Of a DNA stretch of 32,000 nucleotides, positions 16,042-16,944 are shown one piece after another. Within the stretch, counting starts at the first letter, position 1, and every line of letters begins with the position of its first letter. The notes under the pieces were generated by a model. That model made no database searches and was not told where the DNA came from. It saw nothing but the letters and a program-made list of their open reading frames with translations. Made by a program: the position numbers and the translations under genes. Source of the stretch: Nocardia brasiliensis NBRC 14402 (GTDB lineage Bacteria > Actinomycetota > Actinomycetes > Mycobacteriales > Mycobacteriaceae); NCBI RefSeq assembly GCF_000308475.2, contig NZ_BAFT02000104.1:67873-99872 (forward strand), read 5' to 3'.

Positions 16042-16944
16042 GTGACAACAGCAAATGGTCGCCGCCCAATTATCGCTTTCATGAGCGACCTCGGCATCAC
16101 CGACGACTCGGTGGCGCAATGTAAGGGGTTGATGCTCAGCGTGTGTCCGGATGTCACGATCGTGGACATCTGCCACACCATGCAGCCGTGGGACGTGGAG
16201 GAGGGCGCACGGTACATCGTCGATCTGCCGCGGTTGTTCCCCGAGGGCACGGTGTTCGCGACCACGACATACCCGGCGACCGGCACCACCGCGCGCTCGG
16301 TCGCGTTGCGGATCGCGCACGCTTCCAAGGGCGGCGCCCGCGGACAGTGGGCCGGCTCGGGCGCGGGCTTCGAACGGAAGGAAGGTTCCTATATCTACAT
16401 CGCCCCGAACAATGGCCTGCTCACCACGGTCATCAAGGAGCACGGGTACCTGGAGGCCTACGAGGTGTCCTCGCCCGAAGTCATTCCGGAGCAGCCGGAA
16501 CCGACCTTCTACAGCCGTGAGATGGTCGCGCTGCCGTCGGCGCATCTCGCCGCCGGCTTCCCGCTGGAGAAGGTCGGGCGACGCCTCGCCGACGACGAGA
16601 TCGTCCGATTCGAACGCAAAGATCCCGAACTCGTCGCCGACACCGACCTCGTCGGGTACGTGACCAACATCGATCATCCGTTCGGCAACGTGTGGACCAA
16701 CATTCATCGCACCGATCTGGAGAAGCTCGGTGTCGGGTACGGCACCAAGCTGCGGATCACCCTCGACGGCGTGCTGCCGTTCGAGTTGCCGCTGAGCCCG
16801 ACCTTCGCCGACGCGGGGGAAGTCGGGGCGGCGGTCGCGTATCTGTCCAGCCGCGGTTATCTGGCTCTGGCGCGCAACGCGGCGAGTCTGGCCTATCCCT
16901 ACAACCTCAAGGCCGGCATCAGCGTGCAGGTCAAGGTGGGCTGA
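16042..16944 (+). CDS. flA: fluorinase (5'-fluoro-5'-deoxyadenosine synthase)
   Basis: GAAGGAG lies 7 nt before GTG 16042. Collinear with my memory of S. cattleya Fl[55 protein letters not shown], the fluorinase-specific insert [63 protein letters not shown] and [10 protein letters not shown]. Confidence 0.93.

Follow-up and report, generated by a model that had tools for sequence, protein, structure and literature searches.

The window analysed here is a stretch of 32,000 nucleotides from Nocardia brasiliensis NBRC 14402 (NCBI RefSeq assembly GCF_000308475.2, contig NZ_BAFT02000104.1, forward-strand positions 67,873 to 99,872), and all coordinates below count from its first letter. An initial annotation, made from the letters alone, had singled out a 300-codon open reading frame at 16042-16944 as the gene for a genuine fluorinase. 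This reading frame and the genes of fluorometabolite type around it are as follows.

5683-6198, forward strand: FthB-like free-standing aminoacyl-tRNA editing protein, putative fluorothreonyl-tRNA deacylase (Pfam tRNA_edit, E = 1.6e-18)
6947-7621, reverse strand: nobG, LuxR-type response regulator (flG homologue)
8088-9110, forward strand: nobC, EamA permease, putative FthC-type 4-fluorothreonine exporter, 340 aa
9169-9744, forward strand: nobF, HTH/cupin regulator (flF homologue)
9751-11730, reverse strand: nobM, 4-fluorothreonine transaldolase with SHMT and class II aldolase domains, 659 aa
11796-12797, forward strand: nobD, 5-FDRP isomerase (IF-2B/MtnA family)
12770-13354, reverse strand: nobE, adenine phosphoribosyltransferase
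13390-14268, reverse strand: nobB, 5'-FDA phosphorylase (flB homologue, PNP family), 292 aa
14445-15953, forward strand: nobI, S-adenosylhomocysteine hydrolase (flI homologue), 502 aa
16029-16034, forward strand: Shine-Dalgarno sequence AAGGAG, 7 nt before the GTG of nobA, read from the sequence
16042-16944, forward strand: nobA allele, fluorinase (5'-FDA synthase, EC 2.5.1.63), 300 aa, GTG start (TIGR04507; NobA W8JNL4; SUB47361.1)
17015-18445, forward strand: nobH, cation/H+ antiporter (flH homologue), 476 aa, 70 nt 3' of nobA

The nob genes other than nobA were identified from the published cluster and from tblastn matches. The cluster was described, together with nobA itself, in N. brasiliensis ATCC 700358 by Wang, Deng and Qu (PMC3999930), and the whole of it (nobG, C, F, M, D, E, B, I, A and H) lies in the window in the published order with every gene intact. 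Several open reading frame sizes agree exactly with Table 1 of that paper (340 aa for NobC, 659 for NobM, 292 for NobB, 502 for NobI, 300 for NobA and 476 for NobH); for nobI the gene caller places the start at 14499, giving 484 aa, and it is the 502-aa form that fits Table 1. When the fluorinase cluster genes of S. umbrinus are used as tblastn queries, each of the nob genes in the window is matched, at 34-70% identity, and the fluorometabolite partners (the flB, flI, flH and flG types, the isomerase and the 4-fluorothreonine transaldolase) are all found within 10 kb.

The FthB-like gene, of the tRNA_edit/YbaK-INS type, is situated ∼750 bp beyond nobG, past the limits given for the nob cluster in 2014. 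With the tRNA_edit genes adjoining flB in the fluorinase clusters of S. xinghaiensis and S. umbrinus it shares 66-69% identity; for nobC and the EamA gene in the latter cluster the figure is 69%. Judged by sequence, 5683-6198 probably encodes an FthB-type fluorothreonyl-tRNA deacylase and NobC is probably its FthC-type exporter partner. The role of the FthC-type exporter has been described (PMC7408626, PMC9173684), and the same papers state in general terms that genes of the FthB and FthC types usually accompany the transaldolase. The region from ∼5.7 to 18.4 kb is the N. brasiliensis nob fluorometabolite cluster and offers a secure anchor for reading the remainder of the window, as had been expected of the fluorinase gene. 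Two further genes occur within these limits, neither of them in the published cluster: a universal stress protein (Usp) gene on the reverse strand (6503-6946), which directly adjoins nobG and has the same orientation, and a 75-aa open reading frame on the forward strand (6239-6466), with no Pfam match, between the Usp gene and the FthB-like gene. No fluoride riboswitch or other RNA family was found in the whole window at the Rfam gathering threshold, and no tRNA genes were found in it.

The 300-aa reading frame held as first proposed, on the forward strand, with a GTG start at 16042 and a stop codon ending at 16944. Its GC3 is 0.844, as in high-GC actinomycete genes. An overlapping antisense open reading frame (16039-17004, 321 aa) displays the mirror-image GC3 pattern, which indicates that it is spurious and that the forward strand codes for the fluorinase. 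RefSeq/PGAP models of the protein, for example WP_014985135 and WP_042263697, start instead at Met14 and are 287 aa long (codons 1-14 correspond to 16042-16083). The segment that directly precedes Met14, RPIIAF (R8-F13), is conserved in all 107 fluorinase sequences that extend so far and aligns with FlA residues present in the crystal-structure sequence. These two observations, taken with the AAGGAG ahead of the GTG, suggest that the 287-aa models are too short and probably truncate the start of the N-terminal domain; the Shine-Dalgarno sequence in its own right favours the 300-aa model. The TIGR04507 profile begins at residue 15 of the nobA protein, and this profile start may drive the choice of Met14 in RefSeq.

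The assignment to the fluorinase family is supported at several levels. Against TIGR04507, the NCBIfam fluorinase equivalog, the protein scores 611.6 bits (cutoff 400) and covers profile positions 1-285 of 286. A search of the PDB returned FlA (1rqp) at 541 bits with E = 4.8e-162, so that the resemblance to a fluorinase is far beyond chance, and the collinearity with FlA proposed at the outset extends from residue 5 to residue 298, interrupted by one indel of a single residue. The fluorinase entries 5lmz and 5b6i are also among the best PDB matches, and SalL and other SAM_HAT proteins reach at most 170 bits in the same search. The only Pfam domains detected are SAM_HAT_N (PF01887, E = 7.8e-28) and SAM_HAT_C (PF20257, E = 1.8e-13), which, with ∼80% identity to the solved FlA structures, indicate the two-domain SAM_HAT fold. 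Residues D16, T75, Y77, T80, F156, S158, D211, N216, S270 and R271 are all conserved, and those that bind SAM or adenosine (D16, D211 and N216) are invariant across the fluorinase clade. D16, D210 and N215, in MA37/FlA numbering, served as essential residues in EnzymeMiner (PMC9173684).

Comparison of sequences leads us to the view, held with a probability of about 97%, that 16042-16944 encodes a conventional actinomycete fluorinase, a natural allele of the NobA of Nocardia brasiliensis. To our knowledge, fluorinases are the only enzymes that make stable C–F bonds, and their correct identification matters for biocatalysis.

The suspicion that the protein would prove to be a Nocardia-type member already on record was well founded. 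BLASTP aligned it without gaps to NobA (W8JNL4; N. brasiliensis ATCC 700358) with 297 of 300 residues identical, and a GenBank protein of N. brasiliensis, SUB47361.1, which falls in the same 90% cluster as W8JNL4, matches all 300 residues exactly. NobA comes from another strain (ATCC 700358; nob cluster KF963271), whereas the window matches the N. brasiliensis assembly GCA_900454265.1 exactly, with 100% identity to contig UGSN01000003.1 over the 20,903 bp compared. We take this to be an NCTC-series assembly, probably of the type strain NCTC 11294 = NBRC 14402. In keeping with this, the annotated NBRC 14402 protein in our sequence set (P0004) is identical to the window protein over its 287 residues. 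Start codon context, length, gene order, gene sizes, and catalytic and binding residues are the same in NobA and in the window.

The two alleles differ by A4, T201 and V261 in the window in place of T, H and I in NobA. All three positions vary across 132 fluorinase sequences and none is a catalytic or binding residue: residue 4 belongs to the N-terminal tail, residue 201 to the hypervariable interdomain linker pointed out by Wang et al. (PMC3999930), and at position 261, 62 of the 132 homologues have Ile and 54 have Val. The allele of strain IFM 10847 is 96.8% identical to the window gene in nucleotide sequence, with 23 synonymous and 6 non-synonymous differences; the resulting dN/dS of 0.08 indicates that nobA is under purifying selection within the species.

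Recombinant NobA forms 5'-FDA with a strict need for SAM, NaF and enzyme, yields 5'-ClDA only when L-amino acid oxidase coupling removes L-methionine, and is a hexamer (PMC3999930). The same study gave a fluoride Km of 4.15 mM, a SAM Km of 0.42 mM and a kcat of ∼0.07-0.14 per min, reported NobA to be ∼2.3-fold less efficient than FlA, and found the S158A mutant inactive. Deng et al. (2014, ChemBioChem) is cited in PMC3999930 and PMC9173684 as an independent account of the same enzyme. In Pardo et al. (2022; PMC9173684), three N. brasiliensis fluorinases are named, one of them from NCTC 11294 (FlA-Nbra3), and 12 of the 13 purified candidates in the panel are given as active. The enzyme, its critical serine and its gene cluster were thus already published in 2014, and the window allele is not new. 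By analogy with the 99%-identical NobA, this allele would be expected to fluorinate in the same way.

On the published chemistry of FlA and NobA, for which SN2 fluorination is established, the nobA product of the window would bind S-adenosyl-L-methionine and a desolvated fluoride ion, with Ser158 holding the fluoride and Thr80 and Phe156 surrounding it. Attack of fluoride on C5' of SAM would then give 5'-fluoro-5'-deoxyadenosine and L-methionine. In the presumed pathway, NobB would phosphorolyse 5'-FDA and NobD would isomerise the product to 5-FDRibulP; further aldolase and dehydrogenase steps would be required, their genes being elsewhere in the genome (PMC3999930). NobM would make 4-fluorothreonine by a route via fluoroacetaldehyde, NobI and NobE would clear S-adenosylhomocysteine and adenine, which are inhibitory by-products, or return them to use, and protection of the cell against 4-fluorothreonine would fall to NobC and the FthB-like deacylase. 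Operation of this pathway in vivo is presumed.

A competent enzyme need not imply an active pathway, and it is possible, if on balance somewhat doubtful, that in N. brasiliensis nobA and the genes clustered with it are silent, with no physiological output of the fluorinase under normal conditions. 19F-NMR of ATCC 700358 given 2 mM NaF showed no fluorometabolites, and the flK resistance gene is absent from the species (PMC3999930). The window likewise contains no homologue of FlK, DUF190 or MetK (tblastn with S. xinghaiensis and S. umbrinus queries, E ≤ 1e-3), unlike the fluorinase clusters of these two species, both of 4-fluorothreonine type, in which all three are present; the S. cattleya fl cluster also differs from the window in holding flK. 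A consensus scan of 15800-17200 found no promoter or terminator, and hence no sigma-70-like promoter, which is a weak point for an actinomycete, as the E. coli-type sigma-70 consensus says little for Nocardia. Against silence, all ten nob genes are intact, the dN/dS of 0.08 between the nobA alleles of two strains speaks of continuing purifying selection, and all N. brasiliensis genomes covered by the cluster look-up have kept nobA. Moreover, the FthB-like deacylase and the FthC-like exporter have been retained, which would be sensible only if 4-fluorothreonine is sometimes made.

Gene integrity, the low dN/dS of nobA and the retention of the FthB-like and FthC-like genes together suggest pathway activity. 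The specific proposal that the pathway is not latent, and that 4-fluorothreonine or fluoroacetate is made under some unsampled condition, for which actinomycetoma infection is a candidate, nevertheless appears improbable to us. Infection as the setting for fluorometabolites is a speculation of Wang et al. (PMC3999930); if it were true, organofluorine toxins would contribute to virulence. More remotely, the LuxCDE-like cluster downstream of nobH might use a fluorinated intermediate.

The fluorinase reading was further examined at the level of individual residues. The window protein was aligned with NobA, FlA, the S. xinghaiensis and Amycolatopsis bartoniae fluorinases and SalL, the SalL reference matching PDB 2q6i_A at 283 of 283 residues. 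The residue test was extended to 273 sequences, comprising 132 at fluorinase level and 141 more distant representatives. The diagnostic features lie within nobA as follows.

16264-16281, forward strand: halide/SAM pocket of fluorinase type, codons 75-80 (T75 T76 Y77 P78 A79 T80), from the alignment
16309-16374, forward strand: fluorinase loop insert, codons 90-111, 22 aa, opposite a 22-column gap in SalL
16513-16515, forward strand: codon of Ser158, the fluoride-binding serine, aligned to SalL G131

The motifs quoted in the initial annotation are present, namely TTTYPATG at residues 74-81, TFYSREM at 155-161 and a 22-residue string at 96-117. The serine of TFYSREM does fall where SalL has Gly (Ser158 opposite Gly131), and the threonine context of TTTYPATG corresponds to the Thr75-Thr80 pocket of fluorinase type, with T75 opposite SalL Y70. 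The statement that SalL has no insert also stands; the boundaries given for the insert do not, because the true insert comprises residues 90-111 and the quoted string overruns it by RKEGSY. These six residues align with RNEKGQ of SalL, where the gap placement is somewhat arbitrary. In the alignment the insert loop and the Ser/Thr pocket residues are positionally equivalent to those of the reference fluorinases.

Across the larger set, T75, Y77, T80 and F156 occur in all 132 fluorinase-level sequences. Ser158 occurs in 131, the lone exception being an FlA cluster representative (P0056) that is an engineered S158G PDB mutant; wild-type 1rqp has Ser. The residues typical of the 141 distant relatives are V75, D77, V80 and G158, with Asp at position 77 in 129, Val at position 80 in 128 and Gly at position 158 in 135 of them. 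The loop insert is found in 132 of 132 fluorinase-level sequences and is missing from 122 of the 141 distant relatives. Together, the TIGR04507 score, the pocket residues and the insert uphold the identification as a genuine fluorinase.

These residues also bear on the idea that the nobA product is primarily a SalL-type chlorinase that makes 5'-chloro-5'-deoxyadenosine, which we consider very improbable. SalL (Salinispora tropica, PDB 2Q6I) belongs to the same SAM_HAT superfamily and N/C fold family, performs the same SN2 chemistry on SAM, and has D16 and the PNNGLL and FGNVWTNI motifs in common with the window protein; NobA, too, can be brought to form 5'-ClDA once L-amino acid oxidase has removed L-methionine (PMC3999930). 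However, chlorination by NobA requires just this product removal, identity between SalL and the window protein is no more than 40%, and SalL has G131 and Y70 in place of S158 and T75 and is without the 22-residue insert. The gene lies, moreover, in a fluorometabolite cluster and not in one of salinosporamide type. SalL reportedly does not act on fluoride (PMC9173684), and crystal forms of SalL among the PDB matches (Y70T and Y70T/G131S) are mutated at the same two positions.

The least likely product of all is a SAM hydrolase, a SAM hydroxide adenosyltransferase of the DUF62 type, although the record name of SUB47361.1 ('S-adenosyl-l-methionine hydroxide adenosyltransferase') and the restriction of Pfam matches to SAM_HAT_N and SAM_HAT_C might suggest one. 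That name is generic and Pfam-derived, and the curated (R)-SAM hydrolase equivalogs score far below their cutoffs (NF058624, 91.7 bits against 350; NF053629, 58 against 470). Tyr77 stands where the distant relatives have Asp, the catalytic residue of DUF62 enzymes, and Ser158 where they have Gly; residues critical for hydrolysing SAM are, moreover, reported to be missing from NobA (PMC3999930).

The fluorinase encoded in the window can be set beside its characterised relatives. FlA of S. cattleya, ∼80% identical, has in common with it a 22-23-residue loop, S158, T80, Y77, D16 and N215/216, as well as the cluster partners flB, flI, flH, flG and flF. The two are set apart by a single additional residue within the interdomain linker (FlA R192-L202), a variable stretch and the most divergent segment. 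FlA-PtaU1 from the archaeal Methanosaeta sp. PtaU1.Bin055 has a fluorinase-type pocket like that of the window protein, which differs in carrying the full loop; it is without the 23-residue loop and still active on fluoride (PMC9173684), and therefore the loop is not required for fluorination. The claim that the loop distinguishes fluorinases was thus too general. Among the sequences collected, a single loop-less protein with a fluorinase pocket was found, a 307-aa metagenomic representative (P0133) that is 66% identical to the window protein, retains T75, Y77, T80, F156 and S158, and in place of a 27-residue stretch of the window protein has only 8 residues. It resembles the non-conventional archaeal fluorinase, and this is a likeness only. 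The fluorinase locus of Amycolatopsis bartoniae contains neither a transaldolase nor an isomerase gene; at 8196-9825 and 12252-14668 of that locus there are instead genes for a cyclase, a YmdB phosphoesterase, a dihydroxy-acid dehydratase and an SDR, a content that agrees with the fdr-type (5-fluoro-2,3,4-trihydroxypentanoate) pathway of PMC9173684.

Fluorinases had been described at the outset as only a handful, which is right for the characterised enzymes and no longer so for sequences. A word-indexed search returned more than 120 clusters of fluorinase-level sequences at 90% identity, each at 469 bits or more, and at 50% clustering the fluorinase clade is one representative among 6,137 family hits. 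Copies at ≥ 60% identity occur in at least ∼30 of 185,579 species genomes, a lower bound because the census leaves out known producers such as S. cattleya; N. brasiliensis is represented there by IFM 10847 and not by the window strain. Fluorinases are therefore rare, but their sequences are no longer few.

Directly 3' of nobH, an uncharacterised LuxCDE-like cluster occupies 18403-29914, with one further gene near the right end of the window.

18403-19410, reverse strand: LuxD-like acyltransferase
19407-20540, reverse strand: LuxE acyl-protein synthetase
20565-20786, reverse strand: small ferredoxin
21082-22380, forward strand: 432-aa protein with no Pfam match
22368-23813, forward strand: LuxC acyl-CoA reductase
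23810-24931, forward strand: octopine-dehydrogenase-like protein
24928-26118, forward strand: PLP-dependent enzyme
26134-27219, forward strand: luciferase-like monooxygenase
∼27216-28943, forward strand: FAD-binding protein with a weak Trp_halogenase/lycopene-cyclase match
29069-29914, forward strand: SDR
30301-31668, reverse strand: GCS2-family carboxylate-amine ligase (glutamate-cysteine ligase family 2)

The last of these, the GCS2-family ligase, may belong to the LuxCDE-like cluster. At the opposite end of the window, a ∼700-aa product with no Pfam match (∼1150-3291, forward strand) has close to its N-terminus an acidic (A/E)DYED repeat, which is encoded by a 15-bp tandem repeat of ∼15 copies on the forward strand (1426-1653). 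The GC3 of 0.83 in this frame indicates that the forward strand is coding, and a competing antisense open reading frame of 867 aa is spurious. Between the gene with the repeat and the FthB-like gene are two genes that look like ordinary flanking genes.

3307-5013, forward strand: probable cell-wall hydrolase with Peptidase_M15 and glucosaminidase domains
5023-5493, forward strand: OsmC-like peroxiredoxin
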